NCBI GenBank assembly: GCA_014860585.1 | Contig: JACZJL010000027.1 | Span: 10,242 to 74,241 of the forward strand | Length of the DNA stretch: 64,000 nucleotides | From: Bacteroidales bacterium | Lineage (GTDB): Bacteria > Bacteroidota > Bacteroidia > Bacteroidales > 4484-276 | Direction: 5' to 3' | Part shown: positions 822 through 39,956 of the stretch, piece after piece | Position numbering within the stretch: position 1 is the stretch's first letter | Layout of the letters: each line of letters starts with the position of its first letter | Notes under the pieces: generated by a model | What the model was told of the DNA's origin: nothing | Seen by the model: only the letters and a program-made list of their open reading frames with translations | Database searches by the model: none | Position numbers and translations under genes: made by a program

Positions 822-3800
822 TTAAGGAGCACAAACCGGGAATGTAAGCGTGAAACCGGCAGTTGAATAAATATAATATGCTTTGCCGGGGACAAGTTGC
901 CCGAGAGTTGTGATTCCGTTTTCAGGCCATGCAAGATTGTATCCGGCGATCTCCTTGATCATGATGATCTCACTGTGGGCATCAGTTAAATCCTGCACCG
1001 AAACTTCGCAGGCGCTCAATACCGGCAGATAAGACCAGCCCGATGGAACACTTATGGTAGAACCAGCCATTTCTGCGCCTGAGAAAGTAATCTGTGCAGG
1101 AGCGTTCATTTTGACAGCATATCCATTTTGCGGTTCCCAATTGATTAGGGTGTTGGTTCCGATTTCGGGATAATAGAAGCCATTCTGGCCAACAAGGATA
1201 ATTAATTCATCCTCAAATGGCGCCAGTAAATCTTCCAACGCGGGATTGGCAGGGATCACATAACTTGAAATACCACTCCAGCCGGCATTGAGCTGAATAG
1301 CCTGCTCAACCGGAACATCCAGCAAATTGATGTCATCAAAATAAAACAAGCCGGGTTCCAGGTGACCTTCGCCCCCAAATTGAACCACAACCTGGTCGTA
1401 ATTCACGCTATCGGCTACAAAGCTGAAGTCGAAAACAAGGGTCAGCCATTGATCAAAATCATTCACTTCATGATAAAATACTGACTGTGTAGTGTAGGCT
1501 AATGCTCCAAGTAGGCTGTTTTGCAATTTAAGCTCAATTTTTGGTAAAAGAGCGCCGGTATAATTGTTGGATGAAGGAAAATATACTTTCATCTCAAACT
1601 TGTTCCGCTCCGTCAGATCCATCCTGTGTTCGAGGATAAACTGCGCATTAGTGTATTGAAAAGTGCCTGATCTGTCGTATTCAGCCACATTGTTACCGGC
1701 ATTAACAGGATCAGCAACCACAACCAACGGCATCAGACCCGGATCCTGGAAAAACCATTCGCTGATGGTAGCATAGCCGTCGTCTTCGAAATTATCCTGA
1801 ACGTCAAGCGCAAGTAAAGGCTTGTAGAGGGCAATGCCGGTTGGAGGCGGCCCCATCAGTTCATCGAAGAAAAAGGTGTTGTTGGTATTGCTGCCAAAAT
1901 CGAAGAAGACGATGATACGATCGTACAGATCAGACTCAGCACCGGCAAAGTCGAAAATCAGTTGCTGCCATACATCAGGCGTTGTAACTGAAGCGGTACG
2001 TTCCTGGAAAAGGGCAGGATTTGTAGAGTTCTCCAGTTTGAGCAACACCTCGCAGGCCACCGGTGCATGAACTTTCAGCAGGAAGATGCTGGAATTGCTG
2101 AAATTCACCGTTGCATCGAGCAAAGTATAAATATTGGCAAAGGCCTCGCCCGATCTCTCCCATGAGCCAACAGTCGGGCTGGTGTTGATCCCTGAAATAT
2201 CTGGGTTTGCAACTGCTGCCGGGTCATTCGGCCAGCCTGAAAATTCAACATTTACGTTGTCATCAAAATCGATGTATATATAATCGGGCAGCACCAGTTC
2301 AGAAACGCTGATGTAATGGTATTTAGTGATTTGATCCGACAGGAAAGTTGTCTGGGCTTTTAGGTAAACGGTGTAATTGCCTGGTGATTCGTAGGTGTAT
2401 GTAGGATTTTTCAATTGTGAGTCAATAACACCATCACCATTAAAATCCCATCTCCATCCGGTTGGCGAACCTGTTGAGAGATCGGTAAACTGCACAGTCA
2501 AGGGTGAATATCCGGAGAGAGGTTCGGCAGAAAAGTTAGCTTCAATACCTGTGATGGGACCCAAAAGTCTGAAATCATCAAAATAAAACTGTGCCGGTAT
2601 GTTGTGGCCTTCGCCGCCAAGTTGAATCACGATCTGGTCATAATCCTCAATATCTTTGGCTTCAATGAAATTAAAGGTAAGCGTCACCCACTGGTCAAAA
2701 AGAGTCACCGGTTGAATAATCTCAGTCTGGGTTGTCCAGGCATTTGCACCAAGTAAGCTGTTCTGCAATTTAATGGCTGCCGTTGGAGTCAGATCACCCT
2801 GGTAATTATTCGAGGAAGGGAAATATACTTTCATCGAAAACTTGCGGCGGGCAGTAAGATCCATTCGATGGTCGAGTTCGACTTTGGCATTTGTGTATAG
2901 GAAATTTCCTGAACGGTTATAATCAGCCACATTGTTTGAAGCATTTACCGGATCCTGGGTTATGGTCAGATCGGTTGGAGTGTCTGCATCCTGGAATTTC
3001 CAGCCAGAAACAGTTGCATAGCCATCGTTTTCAAAATTATCCTGAACATCCAGTGCCAGGTAAGGCTTAGGCTCTACAATCTCACAAACTGCTGCAAAAG
3101 GAACAGTGATATTTGCCTGGTTCAATTGCCAGTTGCCACCAAAAGATACCTTGCTCCACAACACATTTAAGATCACATCCTCAGGAGGAGTTCCTGCCCA
3201 GGTCAGCGTCCTGCTAATTTTTCCAGGTACAGAAAAATTCTCCTCTGAAATAGTAGCACCACTGCCACCTTCAACAATTAGCAGATCAACGGGATCATCA
3301 TTTGCAGATTCTATTTCCACAATCATTGATGCAACGCCTGTATTGGCTATGGTGAGATAAATGGCAGAAGCCAGTTCGGCGGGATTGCCAAAGTGCCACA
3401 CTTCGGTTTCGCAATAGTCTGACAAAGGAACGGCGCCAGCCACAGTGAAGGCAATGGAGTAAGTTTTATTCACACTTCCATTGGCTGATGTTACCACAAC
3501 ATCAGTTGTTCCGGGCAATGCTGCCGCATTGTTCACCACATGGCTGGCCAATGGGTCGGTTGTTGTAGCTGTAACCTCAGGGACTTCAGTTGTTCCTTCG
3601 GGCAACACAACCGAATAGTTTAGAACAGCAGGTGAAAACCCTTCGACGGTCTCCCCATCTACCTGAAGATCACTTAACGTGGCATCGAATCCCGGTCCGG
3701 CGGGACTTTTCCAGAAATACCAGTTATCAAACCATACATCACCATTCCCCACTACTTTAAATTGAAATATTTCTGAAAGGTTAACAGGCGGACTGAATGA

Positions 3801-5447
3801 TTCTAAAGGAATGTCAATACTAACCCAGGTTTCGGGGGTGATATCCAGAACAAATCCTTCTTCCATTGGGCCTGGGCTGATCAGAAAGAATTCGAGGCTG
3901 GTGGAGTTGGAAGTCCAGAAATCAAGGTGGAAATTTTCATATTCAGAAACATCCAGACTTACCAATTCCGTTCCCTGGAAATCCAAACCCTGATATCTTA
4001 ATGTATTGTTTCCTGCAATGGAGTAATCAAGGGTAACAATGGTTTGCTGCCCCCAGAAGGGATTGAAATTGGTTCCCGGCTGATCATCGTATGCATCGCT
4101 GTAGATCGAAATCACGTCTTCTGCAGCATGGGTCGGTATGGGCGGAGCTGTTGAGGGCTCAGGACTCATGACGGTGAAGTGGACATTGTACGTCAGCGTT
4201 GTTGTTTCATCTTGTGAAGTAACAACCAACGAAGTTGTTCCGGGAAGGGCCGGAGCGGGGTTAATCACAAGGGCTGCTGCAGGATTGGTTGTAGTTGCAG
4301 TAACTTCAGGTACGATAGTGGTTCCATAGGGCAAAGCCACATTGTAGTTCAACACGGTAGGAGCAAAGCCAGGCACAGTGACATCATCCACCTTCAGGTC
4401 GCTCAATGTAGCATCTGAGGCAAATCCTGTCGGGTTTTTCCAGAAATACCAATTGTCAAAATAGACCGTACCGTTTCCAACAACTTTAAATTGAAAGACA
4501 TTGGCAAGATTCACCGGTGGGGTGAAAAAACTCAACGGAATGTCCACACTCACCCAGTTTTCCTGGGTTATGGTTAATGGAAAGGGCTTTTCTGAGGTAG
4601 GATTGGCACTGATCAGATTGAAGGCCAACGCTGTTGCATTGGGTGTCCAGAAATCCACGTGCAGGAATTCGTACAACGAAACATCCTGATTGGTGTATTG
4701 GGTGCCCTGATAGTTCAGGTTTTGGTATCTCAGCGTTTTGTTGCCGGCAGCAAGATAGTCCACAGTTACAGTGGTTGATTGCCCCCAGTTTGGGTTAAAA
4801 TTTGTTCCCGGAATGTTGGTATAGGCCTCGCTGTAGATGGATATTACATTTTCCTGGCTGTGGGGAGGTAGCGGAGGAACGGTGGTAGGTTCAGGCAGTG
4901 GCCCCTGCACTACGCCATCAGGAACCTGGATGTTGTCGAAGTATATGATACGATCGGCTGGGCGCGGCGTAGTGACAAAATCAGGGATAATCACAATCCT
5001 GTTAAAGGTCTTCCCTATGTGTGCCGAAAAGTTAAAAGTGATCTCCTGCCATTGATTGATCAGCGTATTGGGTATTTGTATTTCAACTGCAGGGCTCACT
5101 CCTTCAAATTTCATCCCGATATTGCTGATGTTAGGTTTGAAAACCATGATCTTAACTATAGCATTGGAAGCATCGAAAGTAAACTGGCCGTCATCGTTGG
5201 TATAACAAAGAGCCCAGTTGGCTCCACCTTGCTTGGCAATAAATTTGGCAACAGTAGGTGAAGTATTGATTCCTCCCATTACCGGGTTGGCGATAAATTC
5301 CAAAGGAGGATTAGTAAGGTTTTCTCCTACAACCCAAAGCCAGTCTGCCCCTACGCCTGAGGGCTCGAAGTTAATCGTATGTGTAATTTGCTGCGCATAA
5401 GCACCATACGTAAAAAGCATGATGATAGAAAGTATCAGATTTTTCAT
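822..5447 (-). CDS. Giant (~1541 aa) secreted multi-domain glycan-binding surface protein (CBM-like modules, cadherin-like beta-sandwich, PKD domain)
   Basis: Long ORF. I take the start at the internal ATG 5447 because MKNLILSIIMLFTYGAYAQQ is a clean signal peptide and the longer form overlaps the upstream gene. It has a tandem ~240-aa duplication (VISIYSEAY..NFNPNWGQ..DNWYFW plus ATLSDLKVDD..VPEVTATTT cadherin-like units). A PKD motif is present (PLTVQFTDLSTGSPTGWRWDFNGDG..NPTYTYESPGNYTV). Two copies of an ALDVQDNFENDGYA...KLQNSLLGA..GGEGH..FYFDD module are also present. Confidence 0.85.
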   Translation of the reverse strand: MKNLILSIIMLFTYGAYAQQITHTINFEPSGVGADWLWVVGENLTNPPLEFIANPVMGGINTSPTVAKFIAKQGGANWALCYTNDDGQFTFDASNAIVKIMVFKPNISNIGMKFEGVSPAVEIQIPNTLINQWQEITFNFSAHIGKTFNRIVIIPDFVTTPRPADRIIYFDNIQVPDGVVQGPLPEPTTVPPLPPHSQENVISIYSEAYTNIPGTNFNPNWGQSTTVTVDYLAAGNKTLRYQNLNYQGTQYTNQDVSLYEFLHVDFWTPNATALAFNLISANPTSEKPFPLTITQENWVSVDIPLSFFTPPVNLANVFQFKVVGNGTVYFDNWYFWKNPTGFASDATLSDLKVDDVTVPGFAPTVLNYNVALPYGTTIVPEVTATTTNPAAALVINPAPALPGTTSLVVTSQDETTTLTYNVHFTVMSPEPSTAPPIPTHAAEDVISIYSDAYDDQPGTNFNPFWGQQTIVTLDYSIAGNNTLRYQGLDFQGTELVSLDVSEYENFHLDFWTSNSTSLEFFLISPGPMEEGFVLDITPETWVSIDIPLESFSPPVNLSEIFQFKVVGNGDVWFDNWYFWKSPAGPGFDATLSDLQVDGETVEGFSPAVLNYSVVLPEGTTEVPEVTATTTDPLASHVVNNAAALPGTTDVVVTSANGSVNKTYSIAFTVAGAVPLSDYCETEVWHFGNPAELASAIYLTIANTGVASMIVEIESANDDPVDLLIVEGGSGATISEENFSVPGKISRTLTWAGTPPEDVILNVLWSKVSFGGNWQLNQANITVPFAAVCEIVEPKPYLALDVQDNFENDGYATVSGWKFQDADTPTDLTITQDPVNASNNVADYNRSGNFLYTNAKVELDHRMDLTARRKFSMKVYFPSSNNYQGDLTPTAAIKLQNSLLGANAWTTQTEIIQPVTLFDQWVTLTFNFIEAKDIEDYDQIVIQLGGEGHNIPAQFYFDDFRLLGPITGIEANFSAEPLSGYSPLTVQFTDLSTGSPTGWRWDFNGDGVIDSQLKNPTYTYESPGNYTVYLKAQTTFLSDQITKYHYISVSELVLPDYIYIDFDDNVNVEFSGWPNDPAAVANPDISGINTSPTVGSWERSGEAFANIYTLLDATVNFSNSSIFLLKVHAPVACEVLLKLENSTNPALFQERTASVTTPDVWQQLIFDFAGAESDLYDRIIVFFDFGSNTNNTFFFDELMGPPPTGIALYKPLLALDVQDNFEDDGYATISEWFFQDPGLMPLVVVADPVNAGNNVAEYDRSGTFQYTNAQFILEHRMDLTERNKFEMKVYFPSSNNYTGALLPKIELKLQNSLLGALAYTTQSVFYHEVNDFDQWLTLVFDFSFVADSVNYDQVVVQFGGEGHLEPGLFYFDDINLLDVPVEQAIQLNAGWSGISSYVIPANPALEDLLAPFEDELIILVGQNGFYYPEIGTNTLINWEPQNGYAVKMNAPAQITFSGAEMAGSTISVPSGWSYLPVLSACEVSVQDLTDAHSEIIMIKEIAGYNLAWPENGITTLGQLVPGKAYYIYSTAGFTLTFPVCAP

Positions 5448-5518
5448 TTTCGATAATATTTCTTTTGTATGTAATAATGATTTAAAAACCGGATTTGACC
5501 GTAAAACAAGGTAATATT

Positions 5519-5546
5519 CCGGCTCAGTGATTAATTGCTGAGCCGG
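5519..5546 (-). terminator. Hairpin just downstream of the 5557-7347 gene (weak terminator/attenuator candidate)
   Basis: Perfect 9-bp GC-rich inverted repeat ccggctcag (5519-5527) / ctgagccgg (5538-5546) with a 10-nt loop, 10 nt after the stop. The trailing U-tract on the minus strand is poor (aatattaccttgtttt). Confidence 0.35.
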
Positions 5547-5556
5547 AATAATCCAT

Positions 5557-7347
5557 TTATTGTACAACTACTTTGTTAACATACTGCAAACCATCATATC
5601 CAGTGGCTTTGATCGAATAAATACCTTTTGGCAAACTACTCACCGAAATCTGTTGCGGTACATCGTTGAAGTTCATCACCCTTTGTCCGGTGATATTAAA
5701 AACTTCCACCGTTTTCAGGTGATCAGAATTGGTTATCCTAAAGTAGGTATTCGCAGGATTTGGACTGATATCAAGTTTTGAGATTTCATTACTTGAAATC
5801 CCAACCGGGTTGAGCAGTTCGATATCATCAAAATAGAATTGTGCCGGAACAAAATGTCCTTCACCGCCAAATTGCACCACAACCTGGTCGTAATCAGTTC
5901 TGTCGGAAACGGAGCTGAAGTCAAATTGCAACGTTACCCATTCATCAAGAGCAGTGACGTCCTGTAATATTTCAGTTTGTGTAGTCCAGGCATTTCCACC
6001 CAAAAGGCTGTTTTGCAGTTTGATTGCTGCTTTTTGGGTAAGGCCGCCTGTATAATTGTTAGTAGAAGGGAATAACACCCTGATTTGAAAGATATTCCTT
6101 ACGGTCAAATCCATACGGTGTTCAAGGATAAACTGCGCATTTGTCCATTCAAATGAGCCTGAACGCGTATAGTTGGCTACATGGTTCGCTGCGTTTAACG
6201 GGTCATTAACGATGGTAAGATCCACGAGCTCCGGATCTTGAAATTTCCATGAAGGGATTGTTCCCCAGCCGTCATTTTCAAAATTGTCCTGTACATCTGC
6301 TGCCATAAGAGGCTTTTCGGGGTTTTCACCGGCAAAGGCCATGTTGTCCCAGTAATAAGTTTGTTCGCCGGCAACTGAGCCAGGTGTATCAAAGTTAAAA
6401 AAGATGGAGGCTTTGTTGTAGCTGTAACCAAAGTTGATCTCGGCTGTTCCGGGGGCTTCATTCATAAAGTCGAACGTAATCGTTTCCCACGCGTTGGCAA
6501 CTGTGGTGTTTGTTTCAGTCTCAACACTGATGTTGGGATCGTTGTATGCTTCCACTTTCAAACGGATCGGCGTTCCGGCAGTCGGCGACCAAACGTCCAC
6601 AGTCATTAAGGTTGAGCCGGGAACAAAGGGAATTGGGGTGGGGAAACCGGCAGTACCGCCGACAGTGGTGCCTGCCCAAGGCTCAGCAAGAGCAGTTTTG
6701 ATGGTTTTTGCAACTGTATTCGACGGATTGGTTGGATCAGTAACAATCTCAGAGAAATTTCCACCAAAGTCAATCAGGCCGTAATTAATCAAAGGATCTT
6801 CAAAGGTTACAGGCAGAACAACCGGATTGGAAGGACCACCTCCGCTGTACTCAGGACCTGTAACATCATCAAAAAAGAAAGTGTTATCAGTGGTGGTAGC
6901 AAAATCAAAAAAGATGACAATCTTGTCATAAACTCCTGAAGAAGCAGTGGCAAAATTGAAGTTCAGTTGCACCCATTGATTGGGAGTAGTGATGTTTTGA
7001 GGTACTTCAACGAAGATGGCGCCATTGTTTTTGTCTTCCAGCTTAAAAAGGACGACGCATGCAATTGGCGACCATACTTTTAACGAAAAAGTCTGACCTG
7101 TGGTAAAATCAATTTTACCATCAAGAAGTAAATAGGCATGTGCCCATTGCTCGGTGGTACGCACCCATTGGCCAACATTGGCACTGGTGTTAATGCCGGA
7201 TGGATTGGGGTTGGCTACAACAGTTGGCGCATTTGGCCAACCAAGGAAAGTTTCGTTTTGATTTGCATCAAAATCGTTGTAAATGTATTGTGCCTGAGCT
7301 GTTACAGCAAAGAACACAATGGCTAAGATTAAGTGAATCTTCTTCAT
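5557..7347 (-). CDS. T9SS-sorted surface protein with CBM-like glucan-binding modules
   Basis: Signal peptide MKKIHLILAIVFFAVTAQAQ. It shares the same two module families as the neighbouring giant protein (..ANPNPSGINTSANVGQW..FFDFATTTDNTFFFDD; ..AADVQDNFENDGWGT..KLQNSLLGGNAWTTQ..GGEGHFVPAQFYFDD). The C-terminus ISPNPANTYFRI...VEVFNITGQRV...LPKGIYSIKA...KVVVQ fits the type A T9SS sorting domain. Confidence 0.85.
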   Translation of the reverse strand: MKKIHLILAIVFFAVTAQAQYIYNDFDANQNETFLGWPNAPTVVANPNPSGINTSANVGQWVRTTEQWAHAYLLLDGKIDFTTGQTFSLKVWSPIACVVLFKLEDKNNGAIFVEVPQNITTPNQWVQLNFNFATASSGVYDKIVIFFDFATTTDNTFFFDDVTGPEYSGGGPSNPVVLPVTFEDPLINYGLIDFGGNFSEIVTDPTNPSNTVAKTIKTALAEPWAGTTVGGTAGFPTPIPFVPGSTLMTVDVWSPTAGTPIRLKVEAYNDPNISVETETNTTVANAWETITFDFMNEAPGTAEINFGYSYNKASIFFNFDTPGSVAGEQTYYWDNMAFAGENPEKPLMAADVQDNFENDGWGTIPSWKFQDPELVDLTIVNDPLNAANHVANYTRSGSFEWTNAQFILEHRMDLTVRNIFQIRVLFPSTNNYTGGLTQKAAIKLQNSLLGGNAWTTQTEILQDVTALDEWVTLQFDFSSVSDRTDYDQVVVQFGGEGHFVPAQFYFDDIELLNPVGISSNEISKLDISPNPANTYFRITNSDHLKTVEVFNITGQRVMNFNDVPQQISVSSLPKGIYSIKATGYDGLQYVNKVVVQ

Positions 7348-7411: not shown

Positions 7412-10400
7412 TTATTTCTTAGTTTTTAATGACACTTCCACCCTTTCAATCTCGCCATTTCGGCTGAAGACCATGCTGCTGATCCGGGGGTTCAATTTGC
7501 GGCCGGCAACTTCCTCGGTACTTCCATCGGCATAAAATACAGTGATTGTGTCTTTTGCTGAAAAGTTGAGCAATATTGGTGTGAGGCAGAAAGTAAATCC
7601 AATCTGTCCTTTGATGAGCGATAACTGCACCGGCTCGCCATTTATAGAATAAAATTCAAATTTCTGGTTCTTTTCGAGAATTTCTTCCTCATTCACCAAA
7701 GCCGGCTCAAAAACAATACTTCCATTGCTAATGGAAAGTGCAAGCTCACCAAGCCGGGCAATCACATCCTCTTTTACCTGGCCGGTAAGACCCGGTTGTT
7801 TTGCACCTGAATTCGCAGGCGTGTGCGAATGGGCATCCGTTGGGAATGCGCCATATAATTCCGGGTTTTTATACAACCCGATACCGGCTTTAATTTCGTA
7901 ATAGTGCTGTTTCAACTGACCGATGATTTTAGAACTGGCGCCTTCAGCCACGGCCTGGAAAAAACATTCCTGTGCAGCCAGCAGCAGCTTTGAAACCATG
8001 TGCCAGTATATCGAACCCAGTCCTTCGTAACCGAAAAATGTCCCCGATCGTCCGGTGAATGATTGATGATCGAAAACTTCTTCGTAAATGGCCAGAATTT
8101 TCTCCTTTTCCTCCTCAACCAGTTGACTATAACCACTTGCTTTCAAATTTCCCAGAGACAGCTCAAGCACACCGGCATTACGAAAAGTACTGTTGAAGTG
8201 ATACTCGCCCAGAGCGTCCTGTTGGATGATGTCGGCGTTTTTATCAGCTAATAATTTTTTCAGCAACGCAGATGATTCAACCAGCTCCTCAGGTATCCAG
8301 TTTTTCTCCATGAAACTATGCAAAATTCTGTTGGGATATAGCATGTAGCTGTACTGATCCTCTCTGAACATGTTACTTTTTTTCAACGCGTTGAGTACTT
8401 CGAGGTTCTCTTCGCTGCTGAGAAGTCCCGAGCTGAGCACGGCCACCTGTCCTTCGAGCATTTCATAAAGGTGGCGTATTTCGATTCCATCCTGTTTTAC
8501 CGAAATTAAATTGTACGCGTGATAAAGTGCATCTTTACGTCTGTTGGCTCTGATGGAATGATCAATGTAATGGAGGCAAACCTTGAAAAAGGCTACTATA
8601 TTTTTTACCGGGATCTGGCGTCTCACACCTGAAAAAGAGTAGGTATAGATTTCGTTGCGGTACTTTGCATGCGCTTTTCCAAGGAATTCGATAAAGCGAA
8701 GGCGGTCAGCACCTGAAAAATTAGCATTGAGCAGTTTTGTGTTTTCATCGAGGAACTGGTGAATATTTTCGAGCAGGGAGGCAACCTCTTCCGAAATGCT
8801 CACACTGCTGAACGACACACTGCTAAGCTTATCATCCCAGAAATGCAGAAACCGGCGCAGGTAATATAGTGTTACCATTGATGTTCCATTTCCGACCAAA
8901 GCATTGTTGGCATCGTTCCATTCCGGGCGCTGGGTGTTGAGCCAAATACCTGCTTCCGGAATAAAATTGCTCAATTTTGATAGCAGGGGAACCAGGATTT
9001 TTTCGGTGAGGTTTACCCTATAGATTTGGTTATCCTGTTTGTTTTTGAGCAAACTGGCATCTGCGCCGAGGTAGGCCGCTTCGGTTTTGATCTTATGGTT
9101 GAGATCGAAATCAAACACTACAGTGTCCTTTGGGTTGCGCATGATATCTTCAAACGGTTTGATCCGGTAAGGCACATTGGCGTAGGCGTAAATATCGCTT
9201 GTAAGGAGACGCTCCAGTTTACCCGGATGGAAATTGAACGATAGTTCGAGCAATTTCTGAAGGTATATGATCTGATGATCCCCCCAGTAGCCGATATAAG
9301 CCCAAGGGTCATCGGGTTCGGGTACTTCCCAGTCAATACCGTCGCGCATAATGCGGTAAGGGTTGTATCCGTCAATGGTTGAGGAATTTACGAATTTGGA
9401 GATGATGCCTTCAGTAAATTCGGGGAATGAGTAGCAAAGGGCTTCCCAGTTTTGGAAAATGTCGCGCCAATTGCCCTCGTAGTAATATTTCACCGAACCA
9501 TCTTCGTTTTTGGTTTCGATGGAAAACCTGTTCCAGGGGCGGCTCGGATCGCCATGGCGACGGCTGAAGGTCAGGGGGAGGTATTCACCTGCAATTCTGA
9601 TCAAATCGGCATTATTGGTTTTTTCGGCATGTTTTGTCAAATCGTAATAAGTAAAGCTCTCGGGAAGTTTTTCGAGCCAGTTTTGGAATTCTTTACTCAG
9701 TAAACGATTGATCTGCGAGAGATAGAGTTTAAAATCAGCCTTATCTACCTGATAATTGTTTACAAAAACACCACCCCTCATGATGTTAAAGAGGGTATTG
9801 GTATAATGACGGGCACAGCACATCTCGGTATTGGTTACCTGAAAACCATCAGCCAGCGAAACCATACGCTTCAGGTTTTCTGTTCCCTTCAGGATGTTAG
9901 CAAGGATCAGTTCAACGGGATTCCTGGTGTTGAGGATAAAATGATCCAGATTGGCCACATCAGTATTGCTCTGGTTGATTTCAGCTATTGTAAACCAACG
10001 TCTTTGGTCGTTTGCCTTCAGGCTGATCTTTGAATTGACAAAATAAGCGCCGCGGGCGCCTCGGATATTTTCTTCAGTTTCGACAGCTTCGCCTCTGATA
10101 AAATTATTGACCTGGTGTTCCGAAACCAGAACATTAACCATCTCTCCCAACCCGGTTGTCCAAACAGAGGTTGCAAAAAGCGCTTCACTGGGTTCGGCGC
10201 GGTCAACCGGAATGGCGCTGAGCATAAACAGTCCTAACGAACTATCCTCGGCCTTTTCACTCTTTTTGTAGGCGTCAACCAGGTTGCTGTATTCATTTTG
10301 AAATGCGTAGCCTACACCGCTGGGAAGCACATTCTTCAGCCCATCCAGTAGGTCAACAGAAACCGGTTTCTCCGAAATATTGACAAGTATGGATTCTTTT

Positions 10401-10879
10401 ACAAACCCAAACCGCTCACTGTTGTACCATCCATATCTGAAACGCAACCCAAGATCATTATTGATCTCTTCGAAAATGATTTTATTGCCGTAACTACTCT
10501 TGTAAATGTTTCTGGCAGTGTTGTAAAATCTCAGCGAGTTATCGGTGAAAGGTTCCCACAGCGATGTTTTACCGTCCTTTTTTACCAGAAAGTAAGACCT
10601 GCTTCCGGTTTTTCCTTTGTAGTCATGGATTTTGTCGTCGGTATAATACGGAAATAGCGCATTATCGCGATCTTTTCGCCCAGCCGACACCGAGCCGTTG
10701 CTTGAGATAAACATCCAGTGGTCTGAATCACTCACAATGCTGATAAAAAAATCAGGCATTTCATGATAATTCCTTATCTGGTAGAATTCCTCCCCATCAA
10801 TTTCTACAAATTGCCCTGTAACAGGCATTGGTTTAAAATTGATCTCACTGTTTCCCAGAAATATGGCTTGGTTTTTCAT
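7412..10879 (-). CDS. 1155-aa cytoplasmic protein; candidate GH94-clan (GH149/GH161-type) beta-1,3-glucan/oligosaccharide phosphorylase
   Basis: Clean ATG start, no signal peptide or TM segment, located inside the beta-glucan PUL. The size is in the range I recall for GH149/GH161 enzymes. The motif RPEWNDANNALVG resembles the (A/G)DWND(C/G)xN catalytic-acid motif I remember from GH94 phosphorylases. A basic stretch SRRHGDPSRPWNRF could be a phosphate site. The CDS is certain; the function is a hypothesis. Confidence 0.55.
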   Translation of the reverse strand: MKNQAIFLGNSEINFKPMPVTGQFVEIDGEEFYQIRNYHEMPDFFISIVSDSDHWMFISSNGSVSAGRKDRDNALFPYYTDDKIHDYKGKTGSRSYFLVKKDGKTSLWEPFTDNSLRFYNTARNIYKSSYGNKIIFEEINNDLGLRFRYGWYNSERFGFVKESILVNISEKPVSVDLLDGLKNVLPSGVGYAFQNEYSNLVDAYKKSEKAEDSSLGLFMLSAIPVDRAEPSEALFATSVWTTGLGEMVNVLVSEHQVNNFIRGEAVETEENIRGARGAYFVNSKISLKANDQRRWFTIAEINQSNTDVANLDHFILNTRNPVELILANILKGTENLKRMVSLADGFQVTNTEMCCARHYTNTLFNIMRGGVFVNNYQVDKADFKLYLSQINRLLSKEFQNWLEKLPESFTYYDLTKHAEKTNNADLIRIAGEYLPLTFSRRHGDPSRPWNRFSIETKNEDGSVKYYYEGNWRDIFQNWEALCYSFPEFTEGIISKFVNSSTIDGYNPYRIMRDGIDWEVPEPDDPWAYIGYWGDHQIIYLQKLLELSFNFHPGKLERLLTSDIYAYANVPYRIKPFEDIMRNPKDTVVFDFDLNHKIKTEAAYLGADASLLKNKQDNQIYRVNLTEKILVPLLSKLSNFIPEAGIWLNTQRPEWNDANNALVGNGTSMVTLYYLRRFLHFWDDKLSSVSFSSVSISEEVASLLENIHQFLDENTKLLNANFSGADRLRFIEFLGKAHAKYRNEIYTYSFSGVRRQIPVKNIVAFFKVCLHYIDHSIRANRRKDALYHAYNLISVKQDGIEIRHLYEMLEGQVAVLSSGLLSSEENLEVLNALKKSNMFREDQYSYMLYPNRILHSFMEKNWIPEELVESSALLKKLLADKNADIIQQDALGEYHFNSTFRNAGVLELSLGNLKASGYSQLVEEEKEKILAIYEEVFDHQSFTGRSGTFFGYEGLGSIYWHMVSKLLLAAQECFFQAVAEGASSKIIGQLKQHYYEIKAGIGLYKNPELYGAFPTDAHSHTPANSGAKQPGLTGQVKEDVIARLGELALSISNGSIVFEPALVNEEEILEKNQKFEFYSINGEPVQLSLIKGQIGFTFCLTPILLNFSAKDTITVFYADGSTEEVAGRKLNPRISSMVFSRNGEIERVEVSLKTKK

Positions 10880-10994
10880 TAATAATTGAAATATTGAATT
10901 TTGTTGATCTATTTGATTTTGATAATCATGTTACCCGAAAATTTTGAACTAAACTTATTGTAAGGTTGACAAAGCCTATTTGAAATAACTGATG

Positions 10995-11026
10995 CAAAGT
11001 TAATTCACCTTTAAAACGACACCAAA
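10995..11026 (-). promoter_or_regulatory. Bacteroidota sigma-A type promoter candidate for the 10879-start transcription unit
   Basis: Read on the minus strand: TTTG (11026-11023), 20 nt, then TAACTTTG (11002-10995). This matches the TTTG / TAnnTTTG (-33/-7) consensus known for Bacteroides. It lies in the only long (585 bp) gap inside the PUL. Confidence 0.35.
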
Positions 11027-11464
11027 TTTTCCTGTACGTCAAAGTTGCAGCAAAAACAATATCTCACTACATCAAAACTTCATCAATCAAAAGTTAAATA
11101 ATTGATTATGTAATGGATAAGATAAAGAAATATCATTTTTCATTCATTACAGCATCAGAAACAAGTTGGTCATGAGTTATCATCTTTGGCCAGGGATTAT
11201 TGGTGAATATTTTCAAATTACCGGCAGTTTTCAACTTTTACTGCCAAATTTTAGTTGCTTAGGCTAATATACTGATCAACCTAATGTTAGGCTGAGATGC
11301 GATTCCGGTTGAAATTGATGGGGGAATGGGGTGATGGTAATGCCCAACTGCCTGGTGCAGACTGTTTACTGCCGACTAATCCCCAAAGGTCTTCTCACGG
11401 GGAGAATTTTTGATCCCGAAGAATAAGCTGAAAGTCTTACCCAGTTATATTGAATATTGCTTGA

Positions 11465-12403
11465 TCATTTCCCATTCACCTGCTTCACCGCAACCTTCGG
11501 TGTCCGGTCAACCTTGAATAAACCCCAGTGTTTTTCGGGCTCAAGGGGTTCAGGAGAGCCTTTCCACGATTCATCGAAAGCCTCGAAGAAAAAGGCCAGG
11601 ATGTTTTCTTTTGCTGTCCACTCCATCAGCTTTTCGAAGTAGATCTTCTGAAATTCTTCATTCACATTTTCAGGATGGATACCCCTGCCATTCGAACTTG
11701 TTGCCCAGCCTGCCTCAGTGATTGCGACCTGCTTTTGTGGATATTTATTTGCTACCGCGTAGTAATTTTCCCTGGTGTAGTTGAGCGCCTCGCTGATGTG
11801 CCTGTATTCCCAAACGGGATAGGTGTGTATGGAGATAAAGTCCACTGCTTCGGCCAGATTTTGCAATTTGATCAGCCACGGCACATAGTTTTCGCAAAAA
11901 GTAACCGGTTGGGCGATTTTGGCTTTTACCTGTTGCACATAATCCATCACTTTGCTTTCGGGGACATAATGATCGGTCCACTCCACACAGGCTTCATTTC
12001 CCACTGAAACCGAAAAGATGATCTCCGGGTATTTTTTCGCCAGCCCGATTAAACATTCTATGCGTTTTTGATTGTACACCATGTTGAATTCCAATTGCTC
12101 TTCCGAATAAACCCCTCCATTCCAGGGGCAATTGAAGTTGTTCATCTCGGCGCCAATATAAGCCCCGAGCATCAGCCGGAAATCGAGTTTTTCATGGCGA
12201 ATAACTTCTAAAACTGTTTCGGCGTGTTGGTCGCAATCAAACAGGCGGAGGTATTTCCAATGGCCGTGCAGGATCAACAGGTCTTCCCTGATCTCATCAT
12301 AAGTAGGGTAGATGTGGCCGGGATGCTGCCCTTCTCTGAACCCAGAATAGCAAATGGCGCGGCCGGGTTCGATTTTCAATTTTTCAAACAGATTAACCGA
12401 CAT
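11465..12403 (-). CDS. GH17 family beta-1,3-glucan hydrolase/transglycosylase, no signal peptide (cytoplasmic)
   Basis: GH17 hallmarks: SVGNEACVEW (acid/base Glu), VAITEAGWATS (nucleophile Glu), FFFEAFDESWKG. The N-terminus MSVNLFEKLKIEPGRAICYSGF has no hydrophobic leader. Confidence 0.85.
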   Translation of the reverse strand: MSVNLFEKLKIEPGRAICYSGFREGQHPGHIYPTYDEIREDLLILHGHWKYLRLFDCDQHAETVLEVIRHEKLDFRLMLGAYIGAEMNNFNCPWNGGVYSEEQLEFNMVYNQKRIECLIGLAKKYPEIIFSVSVGNEACVEWTDHYVPESKVMDYVQQVKAKIAQPVTFCENYVPWLIKLQNLAEAVDFISIHTYPVWEYRHISEALNYTRENYYAVANKYPQKQVAITEAGWATSSNGRGIHPENVNEEFQKIYFEKLMEWTAKENILAFFFEAFDESWKGSPEPLEPEKHWGLFKVDRTPKVAVKQVNGK

Positions 12404-13304
12404 ATTTCAATTTTTCAAAGCGGTCCCAAATGCCCCAGAATGCACCAACATCCCCTTCAACGCCCACTTTCCACGATTCGTCAAAGGAGGAAAAGTAAAA
12501 CACTTCAATCTCTTCATCTTTAGCCCAAAGCTGTGTGTTGATGAAATATTTCATGGCGCTCAATTCATCAGGCGCAGCATTGCCGAGGCTAGCGCCTTTG
12601 TTTGGCCAGCCTGTTTCGGTAATGATGACCCTTTTACCATTTCCGGCTGCTTTGGCCTGGTTATACATCTGCTGCATGTGCTGGAGCGCCCACCTGAAAT
12701 CTGTGCCTTCCCAAAATGGATAGCAGTTGCACAAAACGACATCGCAGGCTTCGGTTATAGCGGGTCTTTTCGAAAACTCGTAGTAAGCATCCACATAGCC
12801 GACAGGCACGCCGGGAATCTGATTTTTCACCAGTTTGATGTAATTTATAAGCTCAGTTTCGTCCATATCCTTACGGTAGAGCACTTCGTTACCCACTGCG
12901 GCAATATCCACAAAGCCCTCTTTAGCCAGTTGAATCAGATTTTCGATCTCCTCGCGGTTTTTATCTTCCTCTTTGCCCAGCCAGGCGCCAACAAGTGTTT
13001 TGAGGCCGAGCTCTTTGGCAATTTTGGGAACCAATTCATTTCCCTGAATGCAGGAAAACGACCTCACCCAGCCCGTGTAAGGCTTCAGGATTTCCATCCT
13101 CCGCCTGATCTGCCCCGCCGAAATGATATCGCCGGGTTTCTGGCCATCCTCATAAATGCTGAAACAAAAGCCATGAACCCCGCCATCCAACACTTCAACA
13201 AACATGCTGCGGATGTCGTCATTTGTTTTATCATCAAAGAAGCTTTCGCTTTGAATCATTCCTGATTCTTTAAACTTTAAAAACCTTTCTGCTCTGTAGG
13301 ACAT
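12393..13304 (-). CDS. GH17 family beta-1,3-glucan hydrolase/transglycosylase, no signal peptide (cytoplasmic)
   Basis: AAVGNEVLYR, VIITETGWPNKG, YFSSFDESWK. The N-terminus MSYRAERFLKFKESGMIQ is not a leader. Its 3' end overlaps the next GH17 start by 11 nt (12393-12403). Confidence 0.85.
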   Translation of the reverse strand: MSYRAERFLKFKESGMIQSESFFDDKTNDDIRSMFVEVLDGGVHGFCFSIYEDGQKPGDIISAGQIRRRMEILKPYTGWVRSFSCIQGNELVPKIAKELGLKTLVGAWLGKEEDKNREEIENLIQLAKEGFVDIAAVGNEVLYRKDMDETELINYIKLVKNQIPGVPVGYVDAYYEFSKRPAITEACDVVLCNCYPFWEGTDFRWALQHMQQMYNQAKAAGNGKRVIITETGWPNKGASLGNAAPDELSAMKYFINTQLWAKDEEIEVFYFSSFDESWKVGVEGDVGAFWGIWDRFEKLKYVG

Positions 13305-13373
13305 AGTGTAAAATATTGATTATTATTTATTTGCCTGGAAGTTCCTAATATTTGACTGTGAAAAAATTTAGCG

Positions 13374-14804
13374 CTACAGTTCGCCCCGCCGCCTGACCAA
13401 TTCATTTTTTATTTCCCTTGCTTTTTCTTCGGTCAGATCATATTTCCACATCACGAGAATAGCCAAACCGGCTGTTAGCGCCGGAATAACAATATCGGCA
13501 ATTCTAAGATTAGTGAGTGTTTCGGCATTTTGTAGCGATGCATTCTGGTCGAACCCTACCATCTTCAACACCAGGCCGCCCAATACGAGTGCAAGTGCCT
13601 GTCCCAATTTGACCATCCACCAGTAGATTGCTCCGAATGTTCCCTCTTTTCGCGGCATGCCGTTGTTCAGTTCGTCGAGGTCGCAAACATCGGCAGTCAT
13701 GCTCATCATTAATGTGAAAAGTCCTCCAATACCAAACACCATCAACGGAACGGGCATAAAAAGCAGCCAGTGATTGGCAGGATTGAACCCCCACCATTTG
13801 AGGGCATACCCGACTATCGAAATGAAAGTTGAAACAATAAAGGCGTTTCTTTTACCCCATTTGTTCGACATCCAGGTGATGATAGGTATGATCAGGAATG
13901 CTGTGGATATGGCACTTATTGTCGAAAACCAGGCAGGCCATGTGCCGGCAGCGCCATAATCGCCTCTGAACATATAGAAAACAATGATGAAATAGCTGAA
14001 TGAGGCCACCATCTGATAGCCGTTAAAAACTAAAAACGTTGCACCGCAAAGCCTTACAAATGGGATGTTTTTAAAGATCAGTCCCATATTTTTAATCAAG
14101 CTTTTAAAGTTTTTTGCAAGATTTTTAAATGTGATATCGTCTCTGTTAGAAAGGTTGGCCTGGTCAATCTCTTTACAAAAAATAGCCGGCAATAAACCTA
14201 ATATCAGACATATTGCACCTACGATAATAGACAATTTGCGTACGCCCATAGCCTGGTTTGCAAACAAGTCGGGGCTGGCAATGATCACCCAAAACCAGGG
14301 GACGATCATCCAGGCCACCTGTCCGATAGTTTGTGAGAATCCCATCAGGCGTGTGCGCTCGTTGTAATCAGAGGTCATTTCGTAACCCAGTCCGATGAGC
14401 GGAGTGGAGTAAATGGTGTTGCCAATGATATAAACGATGGACAAGATAAGGAAATACCAGAAGTTGTACATCTGGGAGTCTTCCGGGTTCATCTGCCACA
14501 GAACGGCAAACAAAATACCACTTAAAATAGCGCCGATAAAAATGTACGGCCTTCGGCGACCAAAGCGCGACTTGGTGTTGTCGGTGATATAGCCCATGAT
14601 CGGGTCGGTAATCGCATCGAAAAAGCGGGGCAATCCGCCGAGCAATCCCGCCAAAAATGGATCCATGCCATAAGCCGTGAGCAAAAAGAACATGAATACT
14701 CCAAGTGATCCCGGCAATAAATTATTGACCAGATTGCCTGCTCCGAAAGCTGCCTTCTGTATCAGCGGCACACGGTCTTTTAGCGGTGTTTCATAAGTTG
14801 TCAT
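13374..14804 (-). CDS. GPH-family (glycoside-pentoside-hexuronide:cation) symporter
   Basis: About 12 predicted TM segments. The GPH-type motif is ITDNTKSRFGRRRPYIFIGA. The track start at 14813 is a TTG; I prefer the in-frame ATG at 14804 (MTTYETPLKD..). Confidence 0.85.
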   Translation of the reverse strand: MTTYETPLKDRVPLIQKAAFGAGNLVNNLLPGSLGVFMFFLLTAYGMDPFLAGLLGGLPRFFDAITDPIMGYITDNTKSRFGRRRPYIFIGAILSGILFAVLWQMNPEDSQMYNFWYFLILSIVYIIGNTIYSTPLIGLGYEMTSDYNERTRLMGFSQTIGQVAWMIVPWFWVIIASPDLFANQAMGVRKLSIIVGAICLILGLLPAIFCKEIDQANLSNRDDITFKNLAKNFKSLIKNMGLIFKNIPFVRLCGATFLVFNGYQMVASFSYFIIVFYMFRGDYGAAGTWPAWFSTISAISTAFLIIPIITWMSNKWGKRNAFIVSTFISIVGYALKWWGFNPANHWLLFMPVPLMVFGIGGLFTLMMSMTADVCDLDELNNGMPRKEGTFGAIYWWMVKLGQALALVLGGLVLKMVGFDQNASLQNAETLTNLRIADIVIPALTAGLAILVMWKYDLTEEKAREIKNELVRRRGEL

Positions 14805-14829
14805 AGCTTGCAAATTTATTAGTTGGTTG

Positions 14830-16287
14830 TTAGCCTGCTGTCGGTATTAGTATGGTTTGTATTGCCTTGCCTTGAATGGTAAATTCGATGGATTTGCCGA
14901 AAAGTGAAAGTTTTATTGCTTTTTCAGCGTCATTTGGGTTGAAGAGGATTACAGCGATCGTTCCATCTGGATTTTCAGCGGCAGTAACCATCAGGTCTTC
15001 GGATGGATTATCGAACCCAATCCTTGTGGCGCCTGGTCGGATAAACCTGCTGAAATGTGCGAGGGTGTAGTACAGCGGGGTAAAATAAACCTCATCCTGC
15101 TCCTGATCAACGATCACGGGGGCTACACACCAGTTTTTTGCCCAGTTGGGGCCGCCCTGCCTGTCGAGTACCATGTTCCAGTCAACCCAGCCATCCACTT
15201 GGTTATTTAAACAGCCGATGATGTCGCGGGCATATCTGAACACCGGTACGTATTTAGGATGAAGGTATTTGTGCTCTTCCGGCGCCCAGTCCCAGCCCCA
15301 GTCGGTAGCTTCCTTCGACCAGTACCAGGCATCATCCTTCCACTTTGGAACTTCAGCATCCACACACGCTTCGGTGTTGATCAGGTGTTTGTCGGGCGCT
15401 TTTTGATGGGCATATTGCAAGGCTTCGGGGAAATAATCGTAGGTGCTGGCGTACCAATGCACAGCGGTTCCGTCGAAATATTGCGCTGCTTCTGCATCGT
15501 CATACATCGCATCCACCCAATGTATCATTTCTTCGTCGCGGTTCTGATCAAATCCGAAAATCTTCACCTTCTGTCCTTCAGCTTTCAGTTTTGGGCCTAA
15601 ATGATTTTTTACAAACTCGTTCATCTCTTCCGGGGTGAAGTGCATGCTTTCCCAGTTGCTGTCGTTGCCCAGCGGTTCATTTTCCACAGTAAAAGCCCAG
15701 ATGTCAATGCCTTCAGCGCGGTAAGCTTCAAGGTATTTCGAAAAAAATAAAGCCCAGGTGTCATAGTATTTTGGCAAAAGCTTTCCGCCGCGCCAGTCGT
15801 TGTTGTCTTTCATCCACGGTGGAGCTGTCCAGGGCGATGAGATGATTTTGAAGCCCTCTTTTGAAATGGCCATGGCATCTTTGATCATGGGAATGATGTC
15901 GTCCATATCTTCTTCAATGGAAAAGTATTCCAGTTCCAAATCATCCGGAACCGGTGCATAGGAATAATTGCCAATGGAAAAATCACTGGAGTTCATGTGG
16001 GTTCTTGTCAGCGAATACTGTGCGCCCGATTCGCCGAAGTAGGCTTCGAGGATTTTGTTGCGGTTTTCAGGGCTTAGCTGGTTGAGCAGGTAAGCCGAGG
16101 TTTCGGTAAATGAGCCGCCAAAGCCGGTAATTTTTTGAAATCTCTCTTCAGGTAAAATATAAATTTCAACAAGGTCTTCAGCAGTAGGAAATTCAACCAA
16201 TCTGGTCATCCGGTTCCCGCTTTGGGAGGTTTCGTAAATTTCCACATTCAATTTTTCCGGTTTCATGCAACTGTTCATAAGTATCAT
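14830..16287 (-). CDS. GH30 (glucosylceramidase-like; beta-1,6-glucosidase candidate); true start uncertain
   Basis: ITGFGGSFTE, SSPWTAPPWMKD, FTVENEP (acid/base), HLINTEAC (nucleophile), DRQGGPNW. The ORF stays open up to 16521, but that extension reads through a palindromic repeat (16313-16454) and overlaps the upstream GH17 gene. Candidate ATGs are at 16287, 16278 and 16266. The preceding residues ..KQHLTGIFLIMILMNSC look like a lipoprotein leader that has lost its start codon. Confidence 0.8.
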   Translation of the reverse strand: MILMNSCMKPEKLNVEIYETSQSGNRMTRLVEFPTAEDLVEIYILPEERFQKITGFGGSFTETSAYLLNQLSPENRNKILEAYFGESGAQYSLTRTHMNSSDFSIGNYSYAPVPDDLELEYFSIEEDMDDIIPMIKDAMAISKEGFKIISSPWTAPPWMKDNNDWRGGKLLPKYYDTWALFFSKYLEAYRAEGIDIWAFTVENEPLGNDSNWESMHFTPEEMNEFVKNHLGPKLKAEGQKVKIFGFDQNRDEEMIHWVDAMYDDAEAAQYFDGTAVHWYASTYDYFPEALQYAHQKAPDKHLINTEACVDAEVPKWKDDAWYWSKEATDWGWDWAPEEHKYLHPKYVPVFRYARDIIGCLNNQVDGWVDWNMVLDRQGGPNWAKNWCVAPVIVDQEQDEVYFTPLYYTLAHFSRFIRPGATRIGFDNPSEDLMVTAAENPDGTIAVILFNPNDAEKAIKLSLFGKSIEFTIQGKAIQTILIPTAG

Positions 16288-16312
16288 TATTAGAAAAATA
16301 CCTGTTAGGTGC

Positions 16313-16454
16313 TGCTTGCAAGAAAACTTTAATAGTTGAAAATCAGTGAATACCCCAACCCTAAAGGGAGCACTGATTTTCAACAGTTTACTCCCTTTAG
16401 GGTAGGGGTAAATAAACTGTTGAAAATCATAGTATAATCGTTTTCTTGCAAGCA
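16313..16454. repeat. 142-bp structured palindromic element (MITE/REP-like), copy A
   Basis: Perfect 15-bp terminal inverted repeat tgcttgcaagaaaac (16313-16327) / gttttcttgcaagca (16440-16454). Inside is a perfect 14-bp hairpin gttgaaaatcagtg / cactgattttcaac. Its loop taccccaaccctaaagggag is complementary (19/20) to the downstream ctccctttagggtaggggta. It is related to copy B at 53105-53194. Confidence 0.6.
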
Positions 16455-16487
16455 TTAGATAGTAAATAATTGATTTCATATTATAAA

Positions 16488-20471: not shown

Positions 20472-20677
20472 TGAGTTTCTTACTTTTTTGGCAGAATTTT
20501 CAAATGTCAAATGTCAAAACACAAATAAATTCGAACTTTAAAAAATTAAAATACAAAACTGTTTCAGATCTTCATACACATTTTCAGGTTGAATCTTTGA
20601 TACTTTGAATATTGTGATTTATTTGAAATTTGTCTTTTGCTTTTTGTAATTTTTTAATTTGTCCAGCTTAGGTTATT

Positions 20678-24639: not shown

Positions 24640-24768
24640 CTTTGTTGTATCAACCTTGTGGACAAAAGCATGACACTGGAACTGACAATCCAACGTCCCT
24701 GCTTCATCTTGTTTTAGCTAATTAAGGAAAAGAAATTTGTTTCCGGTGTAAGCTGATGGCCGGAACAA

Positions 24769-26262: not shown

Positions 26263-26431
26263 ACTGAATGTCTTTATTTTTAAATTGATAAAGAGTGGCC
26301 TCTTCATAGTCTGAGTGTAAGTTGGTTGCAAACAGGATAATTTTTTATCCTGCCTGCAACGCTTACTTATTACTTAACTAACCTTATGAAATATGAGAAA
26401 GCCACTACAATAAAGTTTTTAATTGTTCTGA

Positions 26432-27376: not shown

Positions 27377-27378
27377 TA

Positions 27379-30920: not shown

Positions 30921-30930
30921 GGCTTTCGAA

Positions 30931-34019: not shown

Positions 34020-34027
34020 CAAAGTTA
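34020..34027 (-). promoter_or_regulatory. -7 box candidate (TAACTTTG) upstream of susC
   Basis: The minus-strand octamer TAACTTTG fits TAnnTTTG, 48 nt upstream of the susC ATG. The identical octamer occurs at 10995-11002. I found no well-spaced TTTG -33 box. Confidence 0.25.
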
Positions 34028-34273
34028 ATATACATATTTTAGTGATAAAAATTTTTGACATTCTCAAAAACTCAACAGAACAAACAATAACCTACATCAA
34101 CACTACATCAATTAGGATTTAAATCGTTGAATTATAAATTGATATAAAATTAAAAACAACAGTTTTTGCCTGCGACTTTTACCATTAGTCAAGACCTGTT
34201 TTTTTACCCAAATGTCAGGGATGAAATCGTGGGTTATGTTTTACCAATTGTAATCATAGATCAACTGACATCA

Positions 34274-39930: not shown

Positions 39931-39956
39931 TCTAACCATGAAGTAATCATACCGAA

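Follow-up and report, generated by a model that had tools for sequence, protein, structure and literature searches.

A 64,000-nt stretch of DNA from an uncultured Bacteroidales bacterium (positions 10,242–74,241 of contig JACZJL010000027.1, assembly GCA_014860585.1), referred to here as the window, carries on its minus strand an open reading frame (ORF) at 7412–10879 that encodes a protein of 1155 amino acids (aa). In the public record the exact protein is entered as [quoted passage not shown], where MAG denotes a metagenome-assembled genome. The gene product is very probably a cytoplasmic β-1,3-glucan (laminaridextrin) phosphorylase of glycoside hydrolase family 149 (GH149), which would carry out the last catabolic step of a laminarin polysaccharide utilization locus (PUL). 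The analysis shows that the protein belongs to this family, retains its key residues, has no leader peptide and sits in a conserved gene neighbourhood; the substrate, the direction of the reaction, the localisation and the energy argument are what we infer for GH149 here.

Sequence and family of the 1155-residue protein

An earlier reading of the window, made from its letters only (the original prediction), had proposed a soluble 1155-aa protein at 7412–10879 without a leader peptide and had described it as a GH149/GH161-type phosphorylase. The ORF check of the window returned exactly this span, starting with ATG, and added the strand, which the prediction had not given. An in-frame stop lies 18 codons upstream of the ATG, and since this ATG is the first possible start after that stop, there is no hidden N-terminal extension. 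The G+C content of the gene is 44.4%, next to 43.7% for the window. At least 8000 homologues of the protein were found at E ≤ 1e-10, the best 120 of which are full length, so the reading frame is not a chance ORF. Its relatives of 60–89% identity come from MAGs of Bacteroidales, Lentimicrobiaceae and other Bacteroidota.

Leader peptides and transmembrane (TM) segments were called throughout from Kyte-Doolittle hydropathy, with a mean of 1.6 in a 19-residue window as a rough TM threshold. The protein lacks both a signal peptide and a membrane segment, in agreement with the original prediction. Its N-terminus (MKNQAIFLGNSEINFKPMPVTGQ...) lacks a hydrophobic core; the maximum mean within the first 70 residues is 0.95 for an 11-residue window and 1.40 for a 10-residue window, compared with peaks of 2.2–3.7 in the leader-bearing proteins of the same PUL, and no 19-residue window exceeds 1.6 across the whole protein.

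The original prediction had named family profiles and comparison with known structures as ways to check the family, and both comparisons pointed to GH149. The NCBIfam equivalog model NF058639 (“GH149_beta_1_3”; 1,3-β-D-glucan phosphorylase, GH149 family) matched with 1664.4 bits against a cut-off of 1150, over positions 4–1133 of the 1134 in the profile, and no other NCBIfam model was found at E ≤ 1. (A Pfam scan of the protein gave no significant match because Pfam has no GH149 model; this is a gap in the library and not evidence against membership.) The best match among all PDB sequences was Pro_7066 (6HQ6/6HQ8), described as “bacterial beta-1,3-oligosaccharide phosphorylase” (E = 0, 1265 bits). 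The alignment is one near-gapless stretch of 1144 residues, aa 8–1151 against 27–1169, with 50.7% identity and 72% positives over 1147 columns, as counted from the HMMER alignment. The two proteins, both of Bacteroidota origin, are also alike in length (1155 and about 1156 aa), and neither has a targeting peptide (for Pro_7066, see PMC5827456). In contrast, the GH161 chains 9QQK and 9H8V were found by the PDB sequence search in three short patches only, with E around 1e-14. For GH94, there was no chain in the PDB sequence search at E ≤ 10 and no Pfam or NCBIfam match.

An AlphaFold2 model of the protein was made from a shallow alignment of 25 homologues and was used for fold ranking only. Foldseek against PDB placed GH149 first (6HQ6, E = 2.7e-89), followed by GH161 (3.6e-26), GH94 laminaribiose phosphorylase (5e-19) and other GH94 enzymes, and the order of secondary-structure elements in the model agrees with GH149. 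The active-site loops of the model are of low confidence, and the model therefore backs the ranking of folds, not the geometry of residues. Judged by its sequence, the protein belongs to GH149 and not to GH161 or GH94: similarity to GH149 is full length and above the curated threshold, membership of GH161 is not borne out by similarity to proteins of the PapP/OcP1 type, and the similarity to GH94 is a remote one of fold. Of the two families left side by side by the original prediction, only GH149 was thus retained, and the broader likeness to the GH94 clan was recovered at the level of structure.

The residues expected of a GH149 enzyme are all in place. In Pro_7066, W651, N652 and D653 make up the catalytic loop, R470 and D471 form the RD pair for the sugar-1-phosphate, and H959 recognises the phosphate (PMC6771811). 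The numbering of the PDB chain is offset by +19 from that of the paper, and the residues were mapped through the alignment. Their counterparts in the window protein, W654/N655/D656, R472/D473 and H960, are identical, and together with the SRRHGDPSRPWN block they are invariant in 25 homologues of 60–100% identity. The catalytic Asp had been expected in a WND motif, as found, and the three motifs listed in the original prediction are present as well: SRRHGDPSRPWNRF at aa 439, GYWGDHQIIYLQKLLE at aa 530 and RPEWNDANNALVG at aa 651. By comparison with Pro_7066, D656 in the WND loop would serve as the general acid, R472 and D473 would bind the sugar phosphate, and phosphate recognition would fall to H960. 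The regions of the two GH149-specific domains, Dom 1 (370–428) and Dom 2 (852–938), are present and aligned without gaps to 6HQ6. Roughly half of all residues differ from Pro_7066. At the remote surface site for laminarihexaose, five of the eight residues are kept (K833, E840, Y843, Y994 and E995), including the stacking residues Y843 and Y994.

The founding member that defined the family, EgP1 from Euglena gracilis, shares the family and the catalytic residues with the window protein; it prefers short acceptors, unlike Pro_7066 (PMC5827456). EgP1, which we placed by its published description, differs in being eukaryotic and in that it is thought to act on the organism's own β-1,3-glucan metabolism. 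The GH161 enzymes (PapP; 9QQK, 9GY9) and the GH94 laminaribiose phosphorylase PsLBP (6GGY) have in common with it the clan GH-Q fold, inverting phosphorolysis and the related motifs SR[RK]HGD, GNxRD, GYWxDH and W-x-D. Apart from the patchy sequence similarity, they are set apart by the absence of the GH149 insertions and by substrate range: GH161 needs a degree of polymerization (DP) of at least 3, and GH94 laminaribiose phosphorylase accepts only DP2 (PMC6771811, PMC6484121).

The surrounding locus and a proposed pathway

The gene lies in a PUL, as had been proposed, with a BguR-type regulator, SusC/D, GH16, GH158, four GH17, GH30 and three transporters of the major facilitator superfamily (MFS). 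From 37171 down to 822, every gene is encoded on the minus strand; the genes are described here in that order. The regulator (34274–37171, 965 aa) has a leader, a Reg_prop/Y_Y_Y sensor, one TM segment at about aa 750–770 and a C-terminal GerE/LuxR helix-turn-helix (HTH). Pfam identified Reg_prop, Y_Y_Y at 682–745 and GerE at 908–961, the hydropathy peak for the TM segment is at aa 750, and the Pfam scan found no HisKA/HATPase kinase or REC receiver domain in the protein. BguR itself is described as a periplasmic propeller/Y_Y_Y sensor with a single TM segment and a GerE HTH (preprint 10.64898/2026.01.10.698779). The window has this architecture beside SusC/D and families of β-1,3/1,6-glucanases.

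Next come a SusC-like TonB-dependent transporter (30931–33972) and a SusD-like protein (29436–31103), the mechanical ORF start of which is over-extended, so that it overlaps SusC. These are followed by two PKD/CBM-like lipoproteins of 680 and 314 aa (26432–29421; CBM, carbohydrate-binding module), which are putative surface glycan-binding proteins (SGBPs), a GH16 protein of the endo-β-1,3-glucanase type with a PKD domain and a lipoprotein leader (24937–26331), and a Sugar_tr-type MFS transporter (23065–24693). A GH158 lipoprotein (21750–23060), of an endo-β-1,3-glucanase family and matching PDB 9ORO at E = 5.5e-88, precedes a GH17 lipoprotein, predicted to be periplasmic (20678–21745), and an MFS_2 transporter of the glycoside-pentoside-hexuronide type, a candidate oligosaccharide importer (19107–20510). 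A 437-aa lipoprotein without family assignment (17792–19105), a second GH17 lipoprotein (16488–17765), a GH30 protein of the type that acts as β-1,6-glucosidase in laminarin PULs (14830–16521) and a second MFS_2 transporter (13374–14813) complete this part of the cluster.

The last two genes before the GH149 gene encode GH17 proteins without a signal peptide, which are predicted to be cytoplasmic. The best solved relative of the first (12393–13304) is the β-1,3-glucanosyltransferase RmBgt17A (4WTP), which is fungal; that of the second (11465–12403) is the endo-glucanase FbGH17A (6FCG), the leader of which the window protein lacks. In lacking a leader, the pair differs from the other two GH17 paralogues of the PUL, which are lipoproteins; the two leaderless genes overlap each other by 11 nt.

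Downstream of the GH149 gene, at a distance of 64 bp, is a gene for a 596-aa secreted protein (5557–7347) with a signal peptide, an N-terminal 8QX6-like domain and a C-terminal sorting domain of the type IX secretion system (T9SS). In related PULs this gene is likewise conserved as the last one, and the central ≈360 residues of its product are unassigned. Next comes a secreted multidomain protein of about 1541 aa (822–5447) with PKD, CBM4_9, cadherin-like and 8QX6-like domains, the start of which was set at the Met preceding the signal peptide. The 8QX6-like domain (“PKD domain-containing protein”) that both secreted proteins contain may be a laminarin-binding module; a literature search turned up no paper on PDB 8QX6, and the code does not occur in the laminarin-CBM preprint.

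The mechanical ORF starts are over-extended for SusD (29436–31103), GH30 (14830–16521) and the large secreted protein (822–5567), giving overlaps of 173, 34 and 11 nt with the gene upstream; the real starts are internal Met codons preceding the leader peptides. For GH30, a start downstream of the mechanical one is probable, as the gene is called at 499 aa in the related locus L022 (related loci are referred to by such numbers throughout). The 437-aa lipoprotein is kept in several related PULs (61–73% identity in L002, L009, L012 and L124). Searches against Pfam, NCBIfam and the PDB sequences gave nothing above threshold for it; GH2_C, GH_cc and GH72 appeared below threshold. The GNENN and TELG motifs of the protein are clan GH-A-like, and it is probably a glycosidase of that clan whose family is unassigned or has no Pfam model; GH5_46 is a possibility.

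By its gene content, the locus is a laminarin PUL; every neighbouring family of carbohydrate-active enzymes (CAZymes) points to β-1,3/1,6-glucan. The closest known systems are the BguR-controlled laminarin PULs of marine Flavobacteriia (Formosa agariphila, Formosa sp. Hel1_33_131 and Muricauda), which likewise have a regulator with Y_Y_Y, TM segment and GerE directly upstream of SusC/D, together with GH16, GH17 (both periplasmic and leaderless), GH30, GH158, GH149 and MFS transporters. The same CAZyme set, including GH149, has been described for laminarin PULs of marine Bacteroidota (PMC6246565; PMC13188888; preprint 10.64898/2026.01.10.698779), and the founding GH149 paper had already mapped the GH149 genes of Bacteroidetes to PULs (PMC5827456). 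The window PUL is unlike the flavobacterial ones in its host, an uncultured Bacteroidales MAG with relatives among Bacteroidales/Lentimicrobiaceae MAGs, in having four GH17 and three MFS genes, and in the distal placement of GH149 behind a second promoter/repeat module.

We propose that laminarin would be cut by GH16 at the cell surface, where the glycan-binding proteins would act too, and that SusC/D would bring the fragments in. In the periplasm, the GH158 and two GH17 lipoproteins, and probably GH30, would debranch and shorten them, after which the MFS transporters would move the oligosaccharides to the cytoplasm. There, GH149 and phosphate would convert them stepwise to α-glucose-1-phosphate and, finally, glucose. 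The glucose-1-phosphate would enter glycolysis via a phosphoglucomutase encoded elsewhere, and one ATP would be saved per glucosyl unit. Such ATP saving is the general rationale for cytoplasmic oligosaccharide phosphorylases, and in this respect GH149 would resemble MalP and cellodextrin phosphorylase, which release glucose-1-phosphate from imported oligosaccharides in the cytoplasm; the likeness is a functional analogy between unrelated folds and linkages, with no homology claimed. The proposed GH149 step matches the activity of Pro_7066 and EgP1, two enzymes with 45% mutual identity that were both shown to be β-1,3-glucan phosphorylases from DP2 upwards (PMC5827456, PMC6484121). Phosphorolysis of laminari-oligosaccharides as the physiological role has already been put forward in the GH149 literature (PMC5827456).

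Several other features of the window lie outside the PUL. Just beyond it, at 38599–46241 on the plus strand, are genes for a 4Fe-4S/FAD oxidoreductase, two large multihaem c-type cytochromes, one of 530 aa and one of 1030 aa that contains MtrC/MtrF-like domains, and a 541-aa protein without a family match. This cluster hints at extracellular electron transfer in a Bacteroidales MAG. More T9SS cargo is encoded at 47140–50784 (minus strand; a 1214-aa subtilase with a MAM domain) and at 52186–52956 (plus strand; a 256-aa FlgD-Ig-like protein).

The intergenic gap and the position of the gene

The GH149 gene is separated from the leaderless GH17 pair by an intergenic gap of 585 bp (10880–11464), with a G+C content of 34% as compared to 44% in the window. 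The original prediction had called GH149 the first gene after the only long gap of the PUL. The gap is indeed the longest, but others of 301 bp (between regulator and SusC), 243 bp and 167 bp also exist. A Rfam scan of the window, the gap included, returned nothing; small ORFs in the gap are only 20–38 aa and without support; matches in a sigma-70 promoter scan were near the expectation from shuffled sequence; and no terminator was found in the gap, the two terminator-like sites falling within coding region. The proximal ≈140 bp of the gap, with the promoter and repeat described below, are conserved in L022, and the distal ≈150 bp (about 11315–11464) are missing there. The distal part is richer in G+C and contains CCCCGTGAGAAGACCTTTGGGG; it may have been left behind when a rearrangement shifted GH149.

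A sequence with the Bacteroidetes-type promoter consensus, TTTG-N20-TAACTTTG, is located at 10995–11026 on the minus strand, ends 116 nt upstream of the GH149 ATG and is kept in L022 and L023. Upstream of it, at 11067–11086 on the same strand, the sequence TTGATGAAGTTTTGATGTAG forms a direct repeat in tandem and is a candidate operator of the BguR-type regulator; its first TGATG is followed 83 bp downstream by the −7 box. The repeat recurs as TTGATGTAGTGTTGATGTAG (34092–34111, minus strand) in the gap between the regulator gene and SusC, again 83 bp from an identical ATTAACTTTG box (≈34020–34029). The two gaps share the 20-nt tandem repeat TTGATGnAGTnTTGATGTAG, the ATTAACTTTG −7 box and the spacing between first TGATG and box. 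The repeat has only these two sites in 64 kb, upstream of SusC and upstream of GH149, even when three mismatches are allowed; as the pattern was derived from its two sites in the window, the meaningful fact is their match to each other.

We looked for the repeat upstream of GH149 in 19 related loci. A pair of TGATG separated by 11 bp was present in all six loci with a gap of 268–672 bp before GH149, at 109–206 bp upstream of the ATG, and in none of the 12 in which GH149 follows the previous ORF at 0–159 bp. In the remaining locus, L002, the contig ends 790 bp upstream of GH149, and there is no such pair in that stretch. In L009, the repeat element lies between the regulator homologue and GH149. 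Copies of the repeat were also noted at L022 8836–8855, L023 ≈9794, L012 ≈5157 and L009 ≈9850. When metagenome contigs were scanned with TTGATGNAGTNTTGATGTAG, 111 exact sites were found, 31 of them with PUL-like neighbours on the same strand. At almost all of these 31, a SusC-, GH16- or SGBP-like gene or a related PUL gene starts 5–414 bp downstream in the same orientation, and a homologue of the 965-aa regulator (Reg965) is directly upstream at four. L031, L049, L085, L088 and L124 are examples of metagenome loci with the repeat.

As the gap upstream of GH149 shares the repeat, the −7 box and the spacing between them with the gap between regulator and SusC, it probably holds a second copy of the regulator-controlled promoter of the PUL, and GH149 probably heads its own co-regulated transcription unit. 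This unit would also take in the two secreted proteins encoded downstream; its transcription would start separately but under shared regulation, and GH149 would probably be induced by the same BguR-type regulator as the SusC promoter.

The position of the gene also differs between relatives. The same genes surround an intact GH149 in 18 related loci from Bacteroidales/Lentimicrobiaceae, 16 of them genome loci and two of them metagenome contigs. In most related loci, GH149 is in the middle of the cluster, preceded by GH16, Sugar_tr and GH158 and followed immediately by a homologue of the leaderless GH17, whereas in the window and its 89%-identical relative L022 it is at the distal end, after the GH17 pair. 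In this genome and those closest to it, the gene has been relocated to the distal end of the locus. An apparent homologue of 35% identity in L021 was considered as a divergent member of the family and rejected, being multiply frameshifted. In this locus (Bacteroidales MAG AC3.32), the stretch 10001–13410, at the same position in the PUL, gave tblastn pieces of 31–46% identity in three frames and contains no ORF of at least 200 aa. Either the gene has decayed into a pseudogene or this part of the contig was badly assembled.

Alternative readings and significance

Several observations weigh against a laminari-oligosaccharide phosphorylase under the control of the PUL regulator. The nearest characterised enzyme is only about 51% identical, and the chain-length preference may therefore differ. 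Three of the eight surface-site residues of Pro_7066 are replaced (E982 by S983, E990 by Q991 and R1062 by N1063). The AlphaFold2 model is of moderate quality (pLDDT 70.9, pTM ≈0.62), with active-site loops below 50. No phosphoglucomutase gene was found within the window. The TTTG-N-TAnnTTTG promoter pattern taken by itself is weak, with four matches in the window where 1.3 are expected, and the candidate BguR operator is assigned by position only. Finally, GH149 is dispensable in some lineages, as seen from the frameshifted GH149 in L021, and in some Muricauda PULs it is replaced by GH3 (PMC13188888).

The first two of these points would also suit a GH149 enzyme with another preferred substrate (for example a β-1,3/1,6-branched or mixed-linkage oligosaccharide, or another β-glucoside), or one that acts as a hydrolase or transglycosylase, and Pro_7066 is known to tolerate β-linked acceptors of other regiochemistry (PMC6484121). 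However, the residues for phosphate and sugar phosphate are invariant, the score passes a model at the equivalog level, and the neighbouring CAZyme families all indicate β-1,3/1,6-glucan, all of which makes this reading unlikely.

Slightly less likely still is that the enzyme is mainly synthetic in vivo and builds an intracellular β-1,3-glucan reserve from glucose-1-phosphate, with the leaderless GH17 enzymes as possible branching or transglycosylating partners. GH149 reactions are reversible, and Pro_7066 made products up to DP 11 in vitro (PMC5827456). Two predicted cytoplasmic GH17 genes are directly upstream of GH149, one of them most like a glucanosyltransferase, and for Muricauda the literature has considered a GH17 transglycosylase in the cytoplasm and a role in storage. 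Against such a role, GH149 is embedded in, and apparently co-regulated with, a locus for uptake and degradation. Moreover, cytoplasmic phosphate normally favours phosphorolysis, and Bacteroidales are not known to have a storage β-glucan.

A GH161 or GH94 phosphorylase, acting on DP ≥ 3 or on the disaccharide only, would share the clan GH-Q fold and catalytic motifs with GH149, and GH161 was detected at E ≈ 1e-14 by sequence and 4e-26 by fold, but this identity has next to no chance of being correct, being refuted at the sequence level by a score more than 500 bits above the GH149 equivalog cut-off and by a Pro_7066 match that includes both insert-domain regions.

With degradation by the GH149 phosphorylase as the preferred reading, the leaderless GH17 pair invites a more speculative comparison. 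By analogy, the pair and GH149 might be a cytoplasmic β-1,3 counterpart of MalQ/MalP, with the phosphorylase under its own duplicated BguR operator; imported laminari-oligosaccharides would be rearranged or cut by the GH17 enzymes and harvested by GH149 as glucose-1-phosphate. We regard this as doubtful, though clearly less remote than the alternatives above. If it were true, the duplicated operator would allow the phosphorylase to be expressed separately from the uptake genes.

The GH149 family dates from 2018, and repeated reports place its phosphorylases in laminarin PULs of Bacteroidota, so that the assignment changes little for the field; its value is one of annotation, in that the “hypothetical protein” record can safely be renamed. 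The conservation of GH149 and the whole PUL in uncultured Bacteroidales/Lentimicrobiaceae MAGs extends the system beyond the well-studied marine Flavobacteriia, and the ATP saved by phosphorolysis would presumably matter more in fermenting organisms. In many metagenomes, the promoter next to the regulator of such PULs is marked by the tandem repeat (TGATGTAGT-N2-TGATGTAG), which is present here at the GH149 promoter as well and is a concrete candidate operator for the recently described BguR regulators.

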